DNA of 64,000 bases from Candidatus Poribacteria bacterium (GTDB taxonomy: Bacteria; Poribacteria; WGA-4E; WGA-3G): the NCBI GenBank assembly GCA_965214095.1, contig OZ243938.1, forward strand, positions 2,624,001 to 2,688,000, given 5' to 3'. The notes below the pieces were generated by a model. The model had not been told where the DNA came from and made no database searches. It saw only the letters and a program-made list of their open reading frames with translations. Below, piece after piece: positions 45,028 to 55,704 of this stretch. The translations under genes were made by a program, and so were the position numbers. Each line of letters opens with the position of its first letter. Position 1 is the stretch's first letter.

Positions 45028-46518
45028 CTAAAGGATATATCTGCTCAAGTCTTGATCTTTGACGATTTCCGCCAATTCACCACGGACATAATCTGCGTCA
45101 ATAGTAACGCTTTTCTTCTCAAGATCTGGGGCATCAAAGAACAGATTTTCAAACAACTTTTCCATGATAGTGTGTAGCCGTCTGGCACCGATGTCTTCCA
45201 CAGATTCGTTGACCTGAAAAGCGAGTGCAGCGATTTCATCAATCGCATCATCTGTGATTTTGGCTTTAATCCCTTCAGTTTTGAGTAGTGCGGTATATTG
45301 CTTGACTAAAGCGTTTTTCGGTTCAGTTAAGATAGACTTGAAGTCGCTTTGATTGAGGCTTTTTAGTTCAACACGAATAGGAAATCTCCCTTGAAGTTCA
45401 GGGATTAGGTCTGATGGATTAGAGACGTGAAAAGCACCCGCAGCGATGAATAGGACGTGATGCGTGCGGACAGAACCGTATTTTGTTGCTATGGTACTCC
45501 CTTCAATAATAGGAAGGATGTCTCGTTGTACTCCTTCGCGCGACACATCGGGTCCCTGTCGAGATTCGCGTCCAGCGATTTTGTCTATTTCATCTAAGAA
45601 GACGATACCGGTATTTTCGACGCGTTCAATCGCATCATTGATGACAGCGTCCATGTCAATTAGTTTTTCTGCTTCCTCTTGCATCAGGATTTGTCGTGCT
45701 TCGGACACCTTCACACGTCGTTTCTTCGTTTGATTCGGAAGTATGTTGCTGAACATATCTTTGAAGTTAATGTCCATTTCTTCAATCCCACCCGGTGAAA
45801 AGATCTCTACAAATGGCATACTCCGCGATTTCATGTTGATTTCAACTTCGTTATCTTCAAATTCCCCATCCTTTAGCCGTTTACGTAACTTTTCGCGTGT
45901 TTTTTGGTGTCGTTCTCGTTGTTCATCTAAAGCCTCATTTTGCTTTACATTCACTTCTATATCAAAGGGCAATTCAATTGCTTCATCTTCGTCTATATCT
46001 AAATCAATGTCTTCATCTATATCAAAATCATCATCTGTATTATCCGTTGGTTGATTCTTTAGTGCGCGTGGCATTGGGAATAAGCAGTCTAACAGCCGTT
46101 CTTCGGTTGATTCTAAGGCTTTTTCTTCAACGACGACGGTTTGTTCGGCTTTCACACGGCTGACCGAAATCTCTGTTAGGTCGCGGATCATTGATTCAAC
46201 ATCACGACCGACATAGCCGATTTCTGTATATTTTGATGCTTCAACCTTGATGAATGGTGCCTCTACGAGGCGCGCCAGTCTCCGTGCGATTTCTGTTTTG
46301 CCGACACCCGTAGAACCGATCATGATGATATTTTTGGGAGCAACTTCATCTTGCATATCATCAGCAAGCATCTGTCTACGTGCTCGGTTACGCAGAGCAA
46401 TAGCGACACTTCTTTTTGCCTCAAATTGACCGATGATATATTTATCAAGTTCTTCAACGATCTGGCGTGGGGTTAGCGAATCTGCTAAAGTTTTTGTTTC
46501 AACAGTTTTTTTCTCCAA
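45028..46518 (-). CDS. hslU: ATP-dependent protease ATPase subunit HslU
   Basis: TTG start with AGGAGG; [59 protein letters not shown]. Confidence 0.97.
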
Positions 46519-46592
46519 AGTGACCTCCTAAAAGACATGAGACACACGCATTTGTGTCATAGTCAAGTAACAAGTAATCTATAGGTTCTAAT

Positions 46593-47156
46593 CTATTCTC
46601 CAGTTTCAATTGATTCTATTTCAACCTGTGCGTTTGTATAAATGCAGATTTCACTGGTAATCCGTAATGCTTCAGCGACGATCTCGGTAGCGTTGAGTTC
46701 TGTGTATTTTAGCAAAGCTCTGGAAGCTGCAAGTGCAACAGAACCGCCAGAGCCGATAGCCAGTACATCATCGTCAGGTATGATGAGGTCTCCATTACCT
46801 GAGATTAGATAACCGTCTTTTGCATCAACTGCGATCATCAAAGCGTCTGCGCGTCTAAGAATGCGGTCACTTCGCCAATCTCTTGCGAGTTCTACGGCAG
46901 CTTTTTGAAGGTTGCCGCGGTATTGTTCCAGTTTTTTCTCCAAATTTTCATATAGGGTAAGCGCGTCTGAAGCAGAACCTGCGAATCCGATAAGTACACT
47001 ATCCTGATATATCTTCCGTATTTTCCGTGCGCTGTGTTTGATGGCTGTATCCCCTAAAGTGACTTGACCATCTCCACCGATAGCGGTTTGTCCGTTTCTG
47101 CGGACAGCTAATATTGTAGTTGAACGCATTCTTTTCTTTTCAAGTAAATCTGCCAT
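46593..47156 (-). CDS. hslV: ATP-dependent protease subunit HslV
   Basis: Short propeptide then TTILAVRR, GDGQVTLG, GFAGS, AIGSGG, ICIYTN. Confidence 0.97.
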   Translation of the reverse strand: MADLLEKKRMRSTTILAVRRNGQTAIGGDGQVTLGDTAIKHSARKIRKIYQDSVLIGFAGSASDALTLYENLEKKLEQYRGNLQKAAVELARDWRSDRILRRADALMIAVDAKDGYLISGNGDLIIPDDDVLAIGSGGSVALAASRALLKYTELNATEIVAEALRITSEICIYTNAQVEIESIETGE

Positions 47157-47230
47157 ATTTTTTTTTCTAACTAATAGAATCTCCTAAGTAATTCCACAAA
47201 CTAAAAGTTTGTGTTTCAATAGTGCCCAAA

Positions 47231-47920
47231 TTATATGTAGATTTTCCACGAGACGAAATAACTTAAAAACATCACTATTCCCATGAAAAGACCACACCTT
47301 ATCCCCGCGATTAGAGGATGTTGTTTCCGATGAAAGTAGTAAGGCAATAAGGTAAAGGTAAGCAAGAATGTAATTGGCATAAAAATAGGGACTGATGCGA
47401 TGTGTGGTATATTTTCAACCCTCAGTTGGTTCCATATCCATAGTTCTTTTCCAAGTCCGTACATCGTAACGCTCCCAATAGATGCTACAATCCCTGTTAT
47501 CCCCGAAGCAATAAAATGGTGCAGCCCGGACATTTGAAGTCTTTGGTAGCAGTAAACAGTTAACGTTGCCAGAATAACCCATGTCAGTATTAAACCGATC
47601 GGTGTGGTCACGTTTCCCAAAAAATCTGAGCTGCGATAGATGATAAAACGTACTTTTTTTGAAAATAACCAGTCCATCGGTAGATATGTTGCGGTTGCTG
47701 AAAGCCCGAATAAGACACTTTCCCAGAGTATGCCTTCATCACGTTCCGGATGTCTGTAGATAAGATAACCTAACCAACCGATTGCAAGCAGCAGATTCGG
47801 ATAGAGTAACCAGATAGTGCGAATTCCTGCTGCCCTAATTGGTAATAGAAACACTAATAAGAACGTTAATATTGTGGTTAAGGCTACAGTGAATACGGCT
47901 TTATCTGTTTTGAGACTCAT
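47231..47920 (-). CDS. Integral membrane protein of unknown function (about 7 TM)
   Basis: Alternating hydrophobic helices; co-oriented between the ArsA-like gene and hslV. Confidence 0.7.
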   Translation of the reverse strand: MSLKTDKAVFTVALTTILTFLLVFLLPIRAAGIRTIWLLYPNLLLAIGWLGYLIYRHPERDEGILWESVLFGLSATATYLPMDWLFSKKVRFIIYRSSDFLGNVTTPIGLILTWVILATLTVYCYQRLQMSGLHHFIASGITGIVASIGSVTMYGLGKELWIWNQLRVENIPHIASVPIFMPITFLLTFTLLPYYFHRKQHPLIAGIRCGLFMGIVMFLSYFVSWKIYI

Positions 47921-47965
47921 TAGTTTGTTATTGCGGAAATTGAGACGTGAAACTTTAAGAATAGT

Positions 47966-49144
47966 TTATTGGAAAGTGATGATGAGCTGATTACCAGTAA
48001 GTTTTGCTCCGGTAGTTTTAGTGCTTGATAAACTTCGTGGTAGCGCGACATGACGTTTAAATCCTCCAATAGTGACGATCAACTCATCTCCATGTTTTGT
48101 TAGATGTACCTCTTGTTTTGTGAGAAATGGAAGTTGCATGGTCAGTTGGTAATTATCATTGACTTTCGTGAACTGATATGGTTTCTGTTCTGAAAATCTA
48201 TCGGCTGGATCAATATCAGGATAGAGGAGATCACCCAACTTACGGAGTCCTAGTTCACCAACAATCTGATCGTCAAATAGATTCACTTTCCAAATCGGTA
48301 CACCCGAAAAATAGTTTTCTGCTTCCTCTATATACTTTTGTTGCGTTTGTTTCCAGATTTCAAAAAACTTTTCCTCAACACCTTCTGGGAAGATACGATT
48401 GATAATGACAGCGTCAATACATAATCCATATAGGCAAAAGTACATAAAGGCGCGTTGTGTCTCTTTTATTACTATTTTTTCTGGATTTGTCACAAGCCGT
48501 ACAGTAGTTATATTAGGATCAGTCAGGACTGTATCAATTCCTTCAAGTTTATCAAAGAGTTGTTTGATATTTTGGAAGTATGCATCCTTTGGTATTGGGA
48601 CAGAACTGATAGTTTCTATTATGGGGCCGGCAATTTTTGCCATGTTGCGTTCTAATTTGAAGATGCGATTCATATACCATTCAAGTGTAGTTGGAATGCT
48701 AACAAATCTAAGAGATTCACCCGTTGGGGCACAATCGAGGATAATAACATCATAAGTATTTTCACGGACGTACTGATTGATGTAGAGCAATGCGCAGATT
48801 TCTTCCATTCCCGGAAACACAGCAATCTCCTCTGCCACCAGACTTTCCAGTCCAGAACGGTTCAGCAAAGACCGGATGTAGTTGTAGACTTCATCCCAGT
48901 ATTCAACAATCGCTTCTTGAACGTTTATTTCCTGAATCCATAGGTTTTCATTGATCTGTATCCGTTTTTCGTCTGCTTGTGCGATGAGTATGTCTTCTCT
49001 GTCAAAGGAATCACGTAGGGAATGTGCCACGTCAAGTGATATGACGATGGTTTTATATCCAAGTGAAGCCAGTTTTATTCCTGTTGCTGCGGAGATAGTC
49101 GTTTTTCCAACTCCGCCTTTGCCTGTGTAAAATATGAGTCGCAC
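47966..49144 (-). CDS. ArsA/GET3-family ATPase with C-terminal HSP20-like domain
   Basis: TGKGGVGKTT, SLDVAHSL, FPGMEE, LDCAPTG, LVTNPE; C-terminal LPF...GDELIVTIGGFKRHVALP. Confidence 0.92.
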   Translation of the reverse strand: MRLIFYTGKGGVGKTTISAATGIKLASLGYKTIVISLDVAHSLRDSFDREDILIAQADEKRIQINENLWIQEINVQEAIVEYWDEVYNYIRSLLNRSGLESLVAEEIAVFPGMEEICALLYINQYVRENTYDVIILDCAPTGESLRFVSIPTTLEWYMNRIFKLERNMAKIAGPIIETISSVPIPKDAYFQNIKQLFDKLEGIDTVLTDPNITTVRLVTNPEKIVIKETQRAFMYFCLYGLCIDAVIINRIFPEGVEEKFFEIWKQTQQKYIEEAENYFSGVPIWKVNLFDDQIVGELGLRKLGDLLYPDIDPADRFSEQKPYQFTKVNDNYQLTMQLPFLTKQEVHLTKHGDELIVTIGGFKRHVALPRSLSSTKTTGAKLTGNQLIITFQ

Positions 49145-49275
49145 TTTTTAATCCTACTTATTTGTATATTGTTGTTAAGTATATCTTATATTTTGGTGGT
49201 ATGCAAAGGATTGTTTCTGAATTGCGGAAGGGGAGGAATGAACGGATCGATGCAGAATCTTATGCCATTTCTTAG

Positions 49276-49429
49276 AAATAACGTGAGTTTAAGATTTAAT
49301 TCAATAACCGCTGTAGGATAGATTGAGGCACAAACCCCGCCAAGACCTATAATGAGCAAATGTTGGGTTTCGTGTTTCAACCCCTAACCTATAGATATTT
49401 TGGGATGAGTTCTCAAACTTACGTTATTT
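49276..49429. mobile_element. MITE-like element: 19-bp TIRs enclosing an inverted GTAG-REP pair
   Basis: aaataacgtgagtttaaga / tctcaaacttacgttattt (17/19 match) around gtaggatagattgaggcacaaacccc ... gggtttcgtgtttcaacccctaacctat. Confidence 0.75.
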
Positions 49430-49450
49430 TAGGTTTAACTATAAGTGTCC

Positions 49451-52400
49451 TTAGGGTAGCGTATAGACACCCCATCGCACTTTAGCGATTTCACCTGTAT
49501 CAACGAGCCGTCCAAGTTCATTTTTTATTGCTTTTGGATGTCCTTCAATGGCTTCAATAAATTCTGCGGTTCTTTTATCTCCATCAGAAAGGAGGGTGAT
49601 AATTTGCTCCTTGAAAGGAATACGGAGAGGTCTTCCACCTCGAAGTTTTTGTAGGATACGGTTTGCTTGTCTGGATGAGCATCCCAAAATATGTTCCACA
49701 TGTTCTCTGTCAGATTCACCCGTTAGATTACCTCTTTCTGTCTCAAATTGTTCACGTGTTGCTATCACTTCAGGCAGTTTTTCAAGCCCACCTGCAACTT
49801 CAAAGTCTTCCCAGTCGAAAAAGAGTGTCTCAGGTCTGTCTGTGATTTGCGGCAGGAACATACTTGAGATTAATACGATTCTTTTGTTAGGGAATGTGTT
49901 TAACTTAGTGAGTTGGACAAAGCGAGAGAGAATTGGAATGATACTTTGCTCATATACACTTTGAACCCGTTCGTCTATATATTGCACTGAATTTGCGTCT
50001 TTTTCATAGGAGAGGGGTTCCTTGTCGTTCCCGAACAATATCTGTGATCGTCGCCATATTAGTTTTTCAGAGAGCGTTGGTGTTCCAATTATCCAAACGA
50101 CATGCGACTCTTCTAATGTGGATTTCATACCTTTAGGAATATCAAAATCAACGACGCGACAGACATTTTCTTTCTTTTCGAGATCTGACAACCGAGCAGC
50201 GATTGCCTTATAAGTAAGAATAGTATGCTTAATACTGGTGTCTCTATCTATTTCAGTACAGATACCTTGGAAAAAGCGTTGCGCAGTTTCGGACAATCCG
50301 ATGACATCCCAATTACTGTTGTAATCTAAGATAGTATCTCGTGGGTAGTTGCCTGTTCGGATCTGAAAAACCTTGTTTTCAGGGAGCCAAGGTGTTGGTT
50401 CGGTATAGCGTACTTCTATATTCTTATTTGGGAACGCCCGTCGGAGATGTTGATCAGAGAGAGTTACAGACATCAGCATGAGTCTTTTGACGGCTGGATG
50501 CAAAACTGGAGGCACCCAGAATCTTAGTGTTTTTCCGTTCCATCGTATCGGTGCGTCGGCATCCCGTGTATAATATGCAAAGAAACTATTGAGTTGATGC
50601 CAAAACGTCCAGTTTAGGTTTGAATTGATCGTCTGTAATTTCTGAATATCTTCAACGGTATCTATGTTAAAAATCCCCAATTCAATAGCCTTTGTTATTG
50701 ACATTCTGATTCTAATGTCTTCGTTAATCACAGATGAATCCACTTTGAACACGTTAATTCCTTTATCTGTGAGTATATTTGAGGCTTTCTTGTCATGTGG
50801 AATATATGCAGTAGCCCCTCCTTCAAATTTGATGCTAAAACGTGCTAATTGTGTGCCGGTATCAGGGTCAACATAACCGCGCGGTACAACTCTACCCCAG
50901 ACAATGACTTGACACACCTGTCTTAAAAGTCTTTTATGCTGCCATTCGAAAGCGCGCATCACTGCTCGTATGCGTTTCACAGCATCTGCATGAGGTATAT
51001 CCTTAATCTCAACAGCATGAAGTAAGGCTTTGGCAAAGTCTCCTAATGCACTACCTTGCCAGTTGACACTCCATTCCTGCAGAACTTTCTTTGTCAATAT
51101 ACATTCAGGAAATAGTTTGTAGGCTTTTATTCTGTCAAGGATGCAAAGTCTTTCAGTGTCATCCATCTGTTTGAGGATTTCATCTGCAGTTTCTGTGTGT
51201 TGTGGATCAAAAAACAGTTCAGGAAGTGCTAATATTTGTGTCTTAGCGCGATTTAATGAGGCGGGTTGTGATAAAAAACCGCGTTGTTGACAATCCGTAT
51301 AAACAGGACACTGCGGACAGATAGTTTCACTGGCATTACCACCCTTTTCCTCAAGGGCATCACATCTTTCAGGGTCTTCGCATACATTACCAAGTTGAAA
51401 AGGGTTCGTCATGCGAACATCAATCGGTATCTGTTTGACCTGCTCCCACAGGTACATTCGTGGTTTTCAGCGTTCAAACAGCGTAAGTTTCTGATTTTGA
51501 TAGTGATTCTCTAACTCCTCAGCATACTTGTAGGTTGGAACGTTTAAACAGGTTGATTCACTGGCGGAGATAAAGGATTCTGCATCTGTATTCACCTCTG
51601 TGTCTTCCTCGGAAATTAGTGCCAGAATATGGTCAGCCTGATTAAATATGTTCTGATTCTGAAGGTTACCGTTATTGTGCGTACCGTTTATCCGACTTGT
51701 TTGCTCAGGTTTTTGCAACACGGGATTGGATCTTTTTATTGCGAGTGGACTAAGTTTTCCCTCTCGAATACTGAGTATTTTATCGGAGATAGGTATACTC
51801 GCGGGTGATTTAATTGGCACAATTCCTGTATCAACCCAAATATCTGTTATAGGTGTTGATGTTATGGGTATTCCAGTTTCATGGGTTGAGGCGCGTAACC
51901 ATACTGTTCCTTCATCTTCCCATAGTGAGATGTAGTGGTTATCAATTCCACTGTGTGGTAAGGTCCAGCGGTAGTTCTCTTCTTCTTGTCCAATATAAGA
52001 AAATCCTCTTTTAATAAGAGTTTCTTTCGCGAGATCAAGATTCTGTGAACCGAGGGAATCAGGTATTTCGTGGGTAATTGGCTTTTCAATAATTTTTTGC
52101 GGCGCGGGTTCATGAAGTGACACTCGAAGAGCATCAATGGGGGCAAAAACGACTTCCTTAGCGATAATAGGTGGGTCTAACAAACTGCCTTGCAGAATTT
52201 CATAGCGTGCATCCCATCTACTATAATCCTTTTCTCCGTTGATTTCAAGGTATACATCAAGGTTCTCAGGGGCATCGGAAGTCGGTGTGTGCTTATGGAT
52301 ATATAGTTTGGAGGAGTCGGTATTTGGATGCAAGTAGTCCGGTATCCTGCAAGAAAACCGAATGCCTCCAGATTTTGTTATTGTCAATAGTGAGTTGGGA

Positions 52401-52849
52401 ACTGCATTCGCGAGTGTATCAATGCAAGTATGAACTGCCTCAGGTTCGGAGCAAATGAGACTATATGTAAAATGGAAATCGTGCCAATTTGCCCCATCTA
52501 GTTCGGAGGGTGCACCGGTATACACTTGAATTCCCCATGATTCGTGCCATCGCCTTATGTCCCAGTCTTTAATTCCTTGGCGTTTTAGGAAGCGTTCTCC
52601 TCCCAATTCCCTGGGGCCATTATCGTTGCCAGGTCCGCGTCCTATAGGCATAAACGATATGTGTGCTGCTTCTAAGTTCGCGAGTAAAACAGGATATTTA
52701 TATGCACAATGTGTTGTCAGATGATAAGGGAAACCAATGTTGTAAAGGGCAGGTGATACCACTGTCTGACGTTGAAGCAATGGTTTTTTGTTTCGTTCAT
52801 GGCATCGTTGAATAATGTCTTCAAAAGAAATCATAATATCAATTAGCAT
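49451..52849 (-). pseudogene. Large Prim-Pol-like / SF2-helicase-like / wHTH gene interrupted by one in-frame TGA (51467-51469)
   Basis: ORFs 51467..52888 and 49451..51457 are in the same frame, 9 nt apart (FER*KPRMYLW). N-part WGIQVYTG..WHDFHF..TITKSGGIRF resembles bifunctional primase-polymerase; middle has VPTYKYAEE, four Cys, CILDR, LMSVTL; C-terminal winged HTH (LGRLVDTGEIAKVRWGVY). Confidence 0.65.
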
Positions 52850-52888
52850 GTTTTGAAAACCGCGTCTCCTAACAAACAAGATTCTCAA

Positions 52889-53027
52889 TTATAGTAAAAA
52901 CCATAATTATTTACACACTACGGTAGGTTCAATTTCCTAACCGAACCGGTGTTTGTTCAGCCGCATAGATGCGATTAGGAAACCGTATCTGCCGGAGAGT
53001 GTGCACATATTTTACATTTCACTATAA
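52889..53027. mobile_element. MITE-like element enclosing an inverted REP pair
   Basis: ttatagtaaaaaccataattatttacacact / agtgtgcacatattttacatttcactataa around gtaggttcaatttcctaaccgaaccg ... gatgcgattaggaaaccgtatctgcc. Confidence 0.72.
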
Positions 53028-53101
53028 ATTAAAATAATATTACGAAGTGTACCACAAATTTTCTTTATAATCAATATTTTTTTTATTTTATTGTAGTCTT
53101 A

Positions 53102-53234
53102 TTATGGTAAAGTATGAAAAAAAATTATACACGCCACTGTAGGAGCGATCTCCGAATCTCGACTTAACTCAGTGATAATCGGGGTTCCCTCCTACATATC
53201 CAAAATGCATAAACAATTCAAGAATCTACGATAG
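53102..53234. mobile_element. MITE-like element enclosing a degenerate REP pair
   Basis: Left end ttatggtaaagtatgaaaaaaaattatacac resembles the ends at 1576/1678 and 52889; core gtaggagcgatctccga ... atcggggttccctcctac (53139-53195). Confidence 0.62.
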
Positions 53235-53292
53235 TTAGAAAATCTAATATCAAAAAGGTTGTGGTAGTTAACAATGTAATGTGAATTATATT

Positions 53293-55704
53293 TTACCGAT
53301 CAGCACCAAAATCTGGTTCTTTTGCTGATCGTACCACCCATTTTTCAAATACAGACTTGAAAGACTCTGCCTTATCGCCAAAATGTAGATACTGGATACT
53401 TTTGATTGGAATTGACACATCCCCGTATATTTGTGAATGTCCAAGAAATCTGTCATCTTTAACTTCAATCGGTTCAAAAATCAAGATTGGGTTGTGTATT
53501 AAGGCGAAGCGAACTAAGGATTGAGTGGTTTCTGACTGTTGACTGTCTGGTTTCTGCTGTTCCTGTGCTTCTTCATCGTTTATCGGTTGATCAGTGTCGT
53601 CAACGCTGATATCAACTATCCGTGCTACTCGGTCAATAGGTATATCAAGTGTCTTTAAATTAGAAGCAAACTGAAATGTTTTTCCATCGAAACTGATCAA
53701 ATTCCCGCGCTTCATATCACCATTTTTTGCCACAAGAATGTGTTTGGGTGGGTTATCACGATTGAACCGTGGAACGGTGAGTGCGCGTTCTAATTTTACA
53801 TCTAACTCTGTATCCTTGATTTCAAGTGGGTCAAAGATGAGTTCAACCGCTTGTTTAAACGCAAGAGCATCATTATCAATCACGTTTCCTCCAGAAAAAA
53901 CGATTTTCATTTTCTCATTAGGGTTTCCGGTATCTACTTCAATTTCCAAATTTCCAACTTTAGTCCTACGCATTTTGCCTTCCATAATTCGACCATCTTC
54001 TAAAATGATACGATGTTTATTTCCACCAGTGATGGTGATAGGATTTCGGTTCTCTTTACGGGAGTGTGTTTTTCCGCGTGAAAATTCAATACCTTTTATG
54101 TGTTTTGGGGCGATGTGTGTTGCTTTGGCAAATGGTGAAACGAAATTAATACGAACATTATCGTAGGAAATGACTTGACAAGGAATGACTTCTCCGTTCT
54201 TCAGATGCATTAAGTGCGGGAATGTTTTTACATCAAATTGGTGGAGTCTTGATACATGTTTATTATTTCGTTCAACCCGAGGAGATAGGTTATTTGCTAT
54301 ACGAACAGATTCTGAACAACCTATAGGCAACCATTGGATACTGGATTTCTCGTTGGTGTCAAATATTACTTGTCCACGGAGACTTCCGGTTGGAAAGAAC
54401 ATCTTATCGTAAGCATCAATGGGTTGTTTGATTTTACTTGTAGACTCAAGACGAAGTTCGGACACACCGTCAAGTGAGCATACTATTGATTCTTCTGCGA
54501 AATTTGTTCGCATTAAAACACTGTCCGTATTTAATTGTTCGACCTGTCCATTTATAACTGATCCGTCAATGTATGTCAATGCCATGCGTTGATCAGTTTT
54601 CTTTAGTCTTCGTCCGGGCATAACAACTCGATCAACATGTCTTATGTCTGTGTCAGTTCGTGTGCCATCCGTGTCAAGTATATAAGCGTCATCATTTTTG
54701 ATAAACAACTTTCCGTGAAAAACTTCACCATTCATCATGTGGACTCTCGGTTTAGTAAAATCTACTTGCTGGTTTTTAAATTCCTCAGGTTGATGGTAAA
54801 TTCTTAATCGTTGCACCGATAGGTCTTGTCCTCGGTTGTAAACATACGCTCCGGGTACCTCAGTTGTCTGATGCACTTCATCTAATTTCAAGAGTAAATT
54901 TCCGTTTTCATCAAATACCTTTAACACCTGCGTGTCTTGGTCATAAGCAATTCGTAAACGGTAGCTGCGGTGATCTGGTTTTATTTGTAATATAGGTTCA
55001 TATAACGTTCCTTGCACGACAACAAGTTCCTTTGCCCATGTTTCAATTCGCAATGCTTGATAAAGATTTTTTCCGAGAGAGAAAACAAAACCTGGGGGAC
55101 TTGATGTGGATGCAATTTCAAAGTCAATTTCATAACGTTTTGGCCATTTAATCGGATAATATAAATTCGTTTTACTTCTATCTGTGCGTGGTTTTCCACC
55201 CTGTTCCGGGTACCACCCAGTGGGATTTTTGCCGCTTCCTTCCTTGGTTTCGTTTTGGTCTGCTGGCAACCATGATGCCAGTTGTGAACCATCAAAAATA
55301 AGGTTGGAGTGTTCTTGGTTCTCAAGAGAGTAGATCATATCTCTATTGACACGGAACTGACCATGGCGATTATTTAAGAATAGGAAAGTGTCTTCATCTG
55401 AATCAATAATATCCGCTGTCCAGAAGTCTCCCAATATAGTACCGACACGGAAAGTTCCTGTTACAGGTGCGGGGTGCTTGGAGAAAGCAATGGAATCTAA
55501 TACGGTGATATCTACATTCAGATCGTCTGCGAAGTATGGGGACTTCCATCGGATTGTCCCAGATTTACCATCCATCAGTTCACCGGAGAGGGAATCACCA
55601 TTTTTCCAACGTAAAAGTGTTTCTTGAGCCTGTGTCGTGGTGTGAAACCACAATCCGATGAGTGTAAGGGCAATCACCATTAACATTCTAAGACATTTTC
55701 GCAT
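53293..55704 (-). CDS. Exported protein with repeated LxNGD beta-modules, unknown function
   Basis: AAGGAG RBS; signal peptide; recurring WKNGDSLSG, MMNGEVFHG, YIDGSVING, LKNGEVIP, AKNGDMKRG units. Confidence 0.75.
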   Translation of the reverse strand: MRKCLRMLMVIALTLIGLWFHTTTQAQETLLRWKNGDSLSGELMDGKSGTIRWKSPYFADDLNVDITVLDSIAFSKHPAPVTGTFRVGTILGDFWTADIIDSDEDTFLFLNNRHGQFRVNRDMIYSLENQEHSNLIFDGSQLASWLPADQNETKEGSGKNPTGWYPEQGGKPRTDRSKTNLYYPIKWPKRYEIDFEIASTSSPPGFVFSLGKNLYQALRIETWAKELVVVQGTLYEPILQIKPDHRSYRLRIAYDQDTQVLKVFDENGNLLLKLDEVHQTTEVPGAYVYNRGQDLSVQRLRIYHQPEEFKNQQVDFTKPRVHMMNGEVFHGKLFIKNDDAYILDTDGTRTDTDIRHVDRVVMPGRRLKKTDQRMALTYIDGSVINGQVEQLNTDSVLMRTNFAEESIVCSLDGVSELRLESTSKIKQPIDAYDKMFFPTGSLRGQVIFDTNEKSSIQWLPIGCSESVRIANNLSPRVERNNKHVSRLHQFDVKTFPHLMHLKNGEVIPCQVISYDNVRINFVSPFAKATHIAPKHIKGIEFSRGKTHSRKENRNPITITGGNKHRIILEDGRIMEGKMRRTKVGNLEIEVDTGNPNEKMKIVFSGGNVIDNDALAFKQAVELIFDPLEIKDTELDVKLERALTVPRFNRDNPPKHILVAKNGDMKRGNLISFDGKTFQFASNLKTLDIPIDRVARIVDISVDDTDQPINDEEAQEQQKPDSQQSETTQSLVRFALIHNPILIFEPIEVKDDRFLGHSQIYGDVSIPIKSIQYLHFGDKAESFKSVFEKWVVRSAKEPDFGADR

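Follow-up and report, generated by a model that had tools for sequence, protein, structure and literature searches.

The window analysed here is a stretch of 64,000 nucleotides from a Candidatus Poribacteria genome (assembly GCA_965214095.1, contig OZ243938.1, positions 2,624,001 to 2,688,000 of the forward strand), and the subject is a minus-strand gene for a primase-helicase-like protein that is interrupted by one in-frame TGA. The host sequence is a 5.2-Mb contig of a 94%-complete genome. Two open reading frames (ORFs) were found in one frame of the minus strand, at 51467-52888 (473 codons as listed) and 49451-51457 (668 codons). Joined through the TGA (51467-51469, minus strand, residue 461; protein context ...LTLFER-stop-KPRMYLWEQ...), a candidate selenocysteine (Sec) codon, they give a protein of about 1130 residues, as an initial annotation of this DNA had proposed. 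The whole gene was assigned to 49451-52834 (minus strand, about 1127 codons), from an ATG at 52832-52834 to a TAA at 49451-49453. The start was placed at this ATG because its Met column (M6) is nearly invariant in a 96-sequence alignment and the upstream Met is missing in one orthologue. Residues are numbered on the read-through translation (P0121), whose first codon, at 52849, lies 5 codons before the conserved ATG. A hairpin resembling a selenocysteine insertion sequence (SECIS) was located at 51438-51454 on the minus strand (UACCUGUGGGAGCAGGU; stem ACCUGU/GCAGGU, loop GGGA), its stem starting 13 nt after the UGA. The initial annotation read through the stop without flagging the TGA, the hairpin or the multi-copy family to which the gene belongs. 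The two ORFs are most likely one continuous gene under selection, and it belongs to a family of catalytically dead primase-helicases that is specific to Poribacteria and present in many copies; what is new is a UGA, probably recoded, that is kept throughout the genus together with the hairpin downstream of it.

Conservation of the TGA was assessed in a survey of the phylum, read at the nucleotide level. The TGA was kept in all 18 stop-bearing orthologous loci, which are 58-100% identical and come from 16 genomes, all in the genus to which the window belongs; among the matches listed, one orthologue at 86% (below) and all the others, at 58% identity or lower, carry no stop. The 13-nt context of the TGA (AACGCTGAAAACC, 51462-51474, minus strand) is invariant in 14 aligned sequences and kept in 17 of the 18 loci, the remaining one (L067) having AAG after the TGA. 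All 18 loci contain CGC TGA AAR CC followed by the identical 17-mer TAC CTG TGG GAG CAG GT, so that the 17-nt hairpin is invariant throughout the stop-bearing set. Across the 3.4-kb gene, the longest invariant nucleotide runs in the 14 orthologues are the 17-nt hairpin, then the 13 nt at the TGA, then 8 nt, and a single codon was kept in only 66 of 441 degenerate columns with an invariant residue. Each of the 14 orthologues has exactly one stop in about 1130 codons. Two genomes, G105 (L024/L028) and G108 (L023/L031), hold two TGA-bearing orthologue copies each, at different chromosomal places; the recoded gene has therefore been duplicated with its TGA and hairpin intact.

Sequencing error was excluded as the source of the TGA by a contig from an independent DNA run, which bridges the TGA and the hairpin with no difference listed there, and by two further metagenome contigs that carry the TGA and an intact hairpin. 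In the comparison of sequencing runs, uncovered parts of the gene carry no meaning. A pattern scan of metagenomes for Cys or Trp variants of the junction returned 2 loci only, both with the TGA and an intact hairpin.

The ratio of nonsynonymous to synonymous substitution rates (dN/dS) was 0.12-0.22 for the N-terminal half and 0.10-0.17 for the C-terminal half, at dS of about 1-2. These low values point to purifying selection on both halves since the TGA arose. Codons 462-464 (Lys, Pro, Arg), immediately after the TGA, show synonymous changes only (AAA/AAG; all four CCN; CGA/CGC/CGT/CGG/AGA), and for the stretch before the first universally conserved ATG (codons 462-478) the dN/dS is 0.03-0.24. 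The ATG four codons after the TGA is replaced by ATC, ATA, TCA or CAC in 8 of the 18 loci. In the structural model described below, a predicted strand in RecA-like lobe 1 ends at the TGA; this lobe belongs to a fold that spans residues 394-1030, and the TGA is not at a domain boundary. Because the codons after the TGA evolve as coding sequence, the near ATG has been lost in 8 of the 18 loci and the TGA lies within lobe 1, the UGA appears to be passed by ribosomes.

These data bear on a genuine split of the gene, in which the TGA would end a 460-residue N-protein and the C-terminal part would be re-initiated at ATG 465 or 479, the pieces then reassembling or acting apart. Public gene calls divide every database orthologue into exactly two ORFs, an ATG stands four codons downstream in 10 of the 18 loci, and the ATG at residue 479 is present in all sequences seen. 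TGA is also an ordinary stop in this genome, where it ends 259 of 1367 long open frames; the same count rules out a global reassignment of TGA, is compatible with a split, and has to be set against recoding at residue 461. Against a split, the interval between the TGA and the first conserved ATG evolves as coding sequence, the nearer ATG is missing from 8 of the 18 loci, the break would cut a RecA-like lobe, and inspection by eye found no Shine-Dalgarno-like motif at working distance. A split would also leave unexplained both the invariant hairpin and its decay in an orthologue with a Cys codon (below). A split gene is accordingly considered improbable.

The hairpin was compared with published constraints for bacterial SECIS (bSECIS) elements, which in the available part of PMC13188914 are a loop of 3-9 nt whose first two positions contain G, a stem of 4-16 bp, a UGA-to-loop distance of 16-37 nt and a minimum free energy (MFE) of at most -7.5 kcal/mol. 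With the loop GGGA, a 6-bp stem, a UGA-to-loop distance of 19 nt and an MFE of -8.5 kcal/mol, it passes these four constraints as given there. A stricter test, applying the energy limit (<= -7.5) to the bare stem-loop, failed this site together with 9 of 12 accepted sites, and a window-level test was used instead. In a sister clade with TGG at residue 461, the hairpin site reads CAY CAR TGG GAR CAR, with free synonymous variation and no stem.

The machinery for selenocysteine insertion is encoded in the genome. ARAGORN identified 46 tRNAs, and the only tca anticodon belongs to a tRNA-SeC that adjoins selB; selA is present, as is selD, which itself contains a TGA. Across the genus, selB passes the cut-off in 39 of 40 genomes, all 16 TGA carriers included; the genome below the cut-off is 81% complete, and no family match is shown for it in the phylum survey. 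At least 13 other selenoprotein-type genes containing TGA were found, among them those for FdhA, for SelD and for an Rdx/SelW-like protein, as well as 10 of 26 AhpC-TSA matches. In these genes the hairpin begins 7-17 nt beyond the UGA, with a 5-8-bp stem and a loop that is mostly small and mostly G-first (GGUCU, GGU, GGA, GUU, UGGAU). Because the Sec machinery, the genome's own SECIS hairpins and the published bSECIS constraints all fit, the signal downstream of the TGA was read as a probable SECIS.

The genome's selenoproteome is rich, and several of the TGA-bearing selenoprotein-type genes stand in tandem clusters. The TGA-interrupted genes for FdhA, SelD and the Rdx/SelW-like protein lie at 3641372-3643387, 1272212-1273138 and 490096-490311 of the host contig (G000:C1), and the ten TGA-bearing AhpC-TSA loci include 4477687-4478061 and 1416357-1417181. 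Just upstream of selB is a peroxiredoxin-type match with a TGA, and the tRNA-SeC comes directly after the selB gene.

A single orthologue without a stop was found, in genome G103 (L018/L059), at 86% identity. It has TGC (Cys) at residue 461 and carries the sole substitution seen in the 17-mer of any orthologue, CTG to CTA, which breaks a G-C pair of the stem. A quick maximum-likelihood tree nested G103 with the TGA-bearing genomes G000 and G093 at 100% support in the Shimodaira-Hasegawa-like approximate likelihood ratio test (SH-aLRT). The TGG clade was separated, also at 100% SH-aLRT, and the residue-461 label requires two changes on this tree. A collection of 5.8 billion proteins was searched and contained no fused protein more than 57% identical to the N-terminal half, so the comparison of Sec and Cys forms draws on one genome; the 21 clusters nearest to the C-terminal half are all called as fragments of 653-670 aa.

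The column of residue 461 suggests a further way of passing the stop. In 95 relatives it holds W 65 times, Y 12, R 6, H 3, F 3, L 2 and Q 1, with 2 gaps and one other. The UGA could thus be subject to programmed or leaky read-through by the near-cognate tRNA-Trp(CCA), which would restore the ancestral Trp, with the hairpin stimulating read-through or slowing termination. Trp is ancestral and dominant (65 of 95), its insertion would rebuild the conserved protein, and one transition suffices to turn TGG into TGA; any read-through mechanism would account equally well for the purifying selection seen beyond the stop. However, a tRNA-Trp that reads UGA is missing from the genome, where the sole tca anticodon is that of tRNA-SeC, and the single reversion to sense gave TGC (Cys) and not TGG. 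The hairpin, moreover, follows SECIS rules of spacing and loop and resembles the genome's own SECIS elements. To our knowledge, hairpin-stimulated read-through of UGA is not an established bacterial mechanism. Insertion of Trp was therefore judged unlikely, about on a par with a split gene.

Selenocysteine is, in our assessment, probably inserted at the UGA of residue 461, and several observations have to be set against this. The aligned residue is mostly aromatic, with Cys in 0 of 95 relatives, and just one Cys orthologue was found. All known selenoproteins now seem to have Cys homologues, according to the available part of PMC12013277. The protein offers no obvious redox context. The stability of the hairpin is ordinary (z -1.18; 30 of 200 shuffles fold at least as well), and because the hairpin is invariant it yields no compensatory covariation signal. 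The test that implements the constraints stated in PMC13188914 was passed by 209 of 4000 random TGAs (5.2%) and recovered only 5 of 12 accepted sites of the genome. Around the TGA, Rfam returned nothing at E up to 10, and over 49100-53300 nothing at E up to 1. RNA libraries yielded a single 151-nt contig, which lies in the N-terminal half with 4 differences and is no proof of transcription. The ordinary use of TGA as a stop, given above, belongs to the same side.

With selenocysteine as the preferred reading, the following course of events is proposed. Within one genus, a Trp codon at residue 461, in the first RecA-like lobe, would have turned into TGA. SelB with Sec-tRNA(Sec) would bind the hairpin 13 nt downstream and insert selenocysteine, so that the full-length protein is still made; failure of recoding would yield a 460-residue N-terminal fragment. 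The inserted residue is most likely Sec. A more specific version is possible but rather doubtful: the nonsense mutation at the conserved Trp may have been rescued by a chance near-SECIS fold, with Sec then becoming fixed. The product would be a selenoprotein without Cys ancestry or redox chemistry, in which the UGA and hairpin might act as a selenium-dependent switch that governs how much Prim-Pol-only fragment of 460 residues is made relative to full-length, DNA-binding pseudo-helicase.

The full-length protein was modelled with AlphaFold using 96 aligned relatives as input, giving a mean predicted local distance difference test score (pLDDT) of 86 and a predicted template modelling score (pTM) of 0.74; the N-terminal 345 residues modelled alone reached a pLDDT of 92.8. 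Neither ORF has a significant match in Pfam or NCBIfam (none at E up to 1 in Pfam), and the read-through protein has no match in PADLOC or PHROGs. Both models were compared with known chains using VIA-align and Foldseek, VIA-align covering 48,161 representative chains for the N-terminal model. Residues 44-249 (52103-52720, minus strand), which contain WHDFHF, SGGIRF and RWDARY, were assigned to the archaeo-eukaryotic primase (AEP) primase-polymerase (Prim-Pol) fold. VIA-align matched this domain to pRN1 ORF904 (1ro2_A, Z 12.2, root-mean-square deviation (rmsd) 3.4, 175 aligned), followed among Prim-Pol chains by 3m1m_A (Z 11.9) and by 6a9w_A of phage NrS-1 (Z 7.6); unrelated entries have a Z of about 5. 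Foldseek gave 1rni at E 9e-4 and a target-based TM-score (TMt) of 0.54 for the N-domain. The Prim-Pol catalytic-core fold is thus present in the predicted structure. A small alpha/beta domain follows at residues 267-345 (51815-52051, minus strand), without a significant fold match (Z about 5).

Residues 394-1030 (49760-51670, minus strand) were assigned to the XPD/DinG-like fold of superfamily 2 (SF2) helicases, in which Walker A and Walker B have been lost, as have motifs III and VI. Foldseek placed 84 chains at E up to 1e-3, with 5h8w_A at E 8e-11 and TMt 0.45, and VIA-align gave 5sva_Y (Z 14.4, rmsd 6.0, 457 aligned) and 5h8w_A (Z 14.0, rmsd 5.4, 466 aligned). XPD/DinG chains had about 440-485 aligned residues in one VIA-align list, in which most RecQ, UvrB and other SF2 cores had about 260-290. 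Searching the sequences of solved structures with a profile gave no significant match, the best being WhiB on the Cys region at E 0.31. Four cysteines (C490, C511, C514 and C520; 51290-51382, minus strand) lie between motif Ia and the Walker B position, which is where the Fe-S cluster is placed in XPD, and they are the sole invariant columns among 59 full-length relatives. The region has the XPD topology of two RecA lobes with inserted domains, with four Cys between motifs Ia and II.

The C-terminus forms a winged helix (residues 1074-1132; 49454-49630, minus strand), preceded at about 1025-1069 by a helical region resembling a helix-turn-helix (HTH); VIA-align matched the winged helix to 9j89_A (Z 10.7, rmsd 2.1, 59 aligned). 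AbiEi_4 (PF13338) was found in relatives; the window protein has the winged-helix fold without a Pfam match at E up to 1. The architecture of Prim-Pol, SF2 and winged HTH domains put forward in the initial annotation is therefore borne out by the matches to pRN1 Prim-Pol, XPD/DinG and winged-helix chains, and the motif strings it had listed (DFH, SGGIR, VPTYKYAEE, CEDPERC..CPQCPVYTDC, CILDR and MSVT) are all present.

With an E limit of 1e-3, a sensitive search yielded 464 cluster representatives. Among the full-length relatives, the distant ones (20-31% identity) mostly keep TGxGK, PTxxLA, DE, SAT and QAxGRARL (Walker A, Ia, Walker B, III and VI). BT4734-like_N (PF08800) was found in 3 of 24 scanned relatives, 2 of them also having PriCT_2 (PF08707) and AbiEi_4, and two of the BT4734-like_N relatives match phage DNA-primase PHROGs and the PADLOC PrimPol model. 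The family is descended from mobile-element primase-helicases. Its Poribacteria members have lost the ATPase motifs to varying extents, and GxGKS and DE are retained together in only two (P0077 and P0098) of the 13 close members in alignment A1. In the window's orthologue group, the Walker A lysine is absent in 15 of 15, DE has become DR (one EQ), SAT has become SVT, SVN, SKN and similar, and motif VI is gone. The SF2 catalytic set (GK[ST], DE, SAT, QxxGRxxR) is thus missing from all 15 orthologues.

Catalytic AEP motifs comprise an acidic dyad DxD/E, a His in motif II and an Asp in motif III. The orthologues have DFH, DFY, DFN or DFD at the dyad (DFH in the window), so that the second acidic position drifts, and RWDARY is retained as a motif III-like element. 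The motif II position is Arg (SGGxR) family-wide, also in relatives whose helicase motifs are intact, and such a norm does not indicate decay. The full AEP catalytic set is lacking in the window protein. The initial annotation's description of dead catalytic motifs thus holds for the helicase, and for the drifting DxD of the primase, and fails for SGGIR. Given this loss of the ATPase motifs and the drift at the second acidic position of the primase, the protein most likely has a non-catalytic role in DNA binding, through the HTH, the winged helix and the helicase-like scaffold.

The gene, which had been called solo, has 8 further full or near-full paralogues in this genome, at 43-54% identity, along with fragments. 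The phylum survey found the family in 87 of 176 genomes, all but one in a single taxonomic family, with at most 11 matches per genome. A tight subgroup of members of exactly 976 residues (dozens of clusters, 53-55% identical to the N-terminal half) appears to be a distinct, shorter class of paralogues. The neighbourhoods of the paralogues have no partner gene in common and contain no integrase or transposase; the neighbours are unrelated metabolic, leucine-rich repeat, cadherin/lectin-type genes and similar. One paralogue (L109, G000:C1:4774200-4789500) adjoins a Type ISP-like restriction-modification methylase (Type_ISP_C and N6_Mtase), the sole defence-type neighbourhood among them.

Downstream of the gene, on the same strand at 45028-49144, lie an ArsA-type ATPase with an HSP20-like tail, DUF6989, HslV and HslU. 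Eight orthologous loci are upstream of DUF6989-HslV-HslU as in the window, and ArsA is also kept in 7 of the 8. A promoter-like TTTGCA-18-TATACT for the downstream ArsA (49151-49207, motif at 49178-49207, minus strand) is the sole conserved part of the downstream spacer; no conserved RNA-like flanking element was found there among orthologues. Directly upstream of the gene is an ORF of 803 residues (53293-55704, minus strand), without a Pfam, PADLOC or PHROG match, which is kept upstream of the orthologue in three related genomes at 67-93% identity. No integrase or phage gene was found near the window gene, as the initial annotation had noted.

The repeats on either side of the gene, which had been taken for bracketing miniature inverted-repeat transposable elements (MITEs) or repetitive extragenic palindromic (REP) elements, differ in kind. 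The upstream interval, 52889-53234, does hold real repeats. An interspersed MITE/REP-like repeat of about 140 nt lies outside the gene at 52888-53029, in high copy number (about 110-270 matches in the genome at 85-93% identity), and a second, lower-copy repeat (10-25 matches) at 53110-53230 contains a GTAGGAGCGA-type palindrome. Palindromic units of the GTAGGAGCGACC type occupy the equivalent spacers of related genomes. The downstream element at 49276-49429 is an imperfect inverted repeat with 46-nt arms (72% complementary); it has one weak further match in the genome, so is not a repeat family, and is absent from orthologues. The spacer filler differs among orthologues, which lack the same repeats.

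An in-frame stop, dead catalytic motifs and upstream repeats are what a decaying pseudogene, or passive cargo between REP/MITE elements, would show. Decay is at odds with exactly one stop per roughly 1130 codons in each of 14 orthologues and with a dN/dS of 0.10-0.22 at near-saturated dS. The cargo proposal was not supported, as the repeat families are on the upstream flank only, the downstream spacer is variable with fillers that differ in orthologues, and ArsA-HslVU synteny is conserved. Either form of this explanation is very improbable. The other proposal of the initial annotation, a domesticated mobile-element replication protein reused for DNA binding, fits the data: relatives with a BT4734-like AEP, PriCT-2, intact SF2 motifs and HTH stand beside motif-dead orthologues that are under purifying selection at a fixed chromosomal position.

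Should Sec indeed be inserted, the gene would represent a selenoprotein family built on a primase-helicase, in which Sec takes the place of a Trp, and would be a concrete case of a new Sec codon arising from a nonsense mutation beside a chance hairpin. The deep-Sep filter, as described in the available part of PMC12013277, demands that the top ten hits include either one known homologue with Sec or two with Cys, and such a family would escape pipelines that demand Cys homologues. The words 'helicase' and 'primase' are absent from the main text of the selenoproteome papers PMC13188914 and PMC12013277, whose supplements may list further families. Literature searches combining Poribacteria with selenoprotein, and Poribacteria with primase and helicase, returned nothing on the family. 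A practical consequence is that public annotation splits every database orthologue into two ORFs; its family of catalytically dead primase-helicases in Poribacteria is large and unnamed.

In comparison with known systems, the protein resembles the SF2 Fe-S helicases XPD, Rad3 and DinG (including CasDinG) in the fold of residues 394-1030, the position of the four Cys and the order of motifs. It differs from them in lacking the Walker A lysine, in having DR for DE and an altered SAT, and in the loss of motif VI in the orthologue group. Nor does it have a significant sequence match to solved chains; it has an AEP domain and a winged helix as fusion partners, and a UGA in lobe 1. With the mobile-element primase-helicases (pRN1 ORF904; BT4734-like/VirE with PriCT-2) it shares the Prim-Pol fold of the N-domain, and its distant relatives have PF08800 and PF08707 before an intact helicase and an AbiEi-type HTH. 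The helicase of ORF904 is of the SF3 class, whereas that of the window protein is XPD-like SF2. Unlike the mobile-element genes, the window gene is chromosomal and syntenic, exists in about ten copies and has no genes of integrase, transposase or plasmid type in its vicinity. It is like selenoprotein genes read by SelB, of which fdhF is the archetype, in that its UGA is conserved across species, a hairpin whose loop begins with G follows 13 nt downstream, the genome encodes the Sec machinery, and the hairpin has decayed in an orthologue with Cys. Unlike known selenoprotein genes, Sec would replace a conserved Trp and not a Cys, there is no redox motif or catalytic activity, and the Cys homologues number one. 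In the coat protein gene of phage Qbeta, a UGA is read as Trp at low efficiency, giving a short and a long product, and neither a downstream hairpin nor Sec machinery is known to be needed. The window gene likewise has its UGA within a continuous frame, but none of its nucleotide stretches is more conserved than the hairpin.

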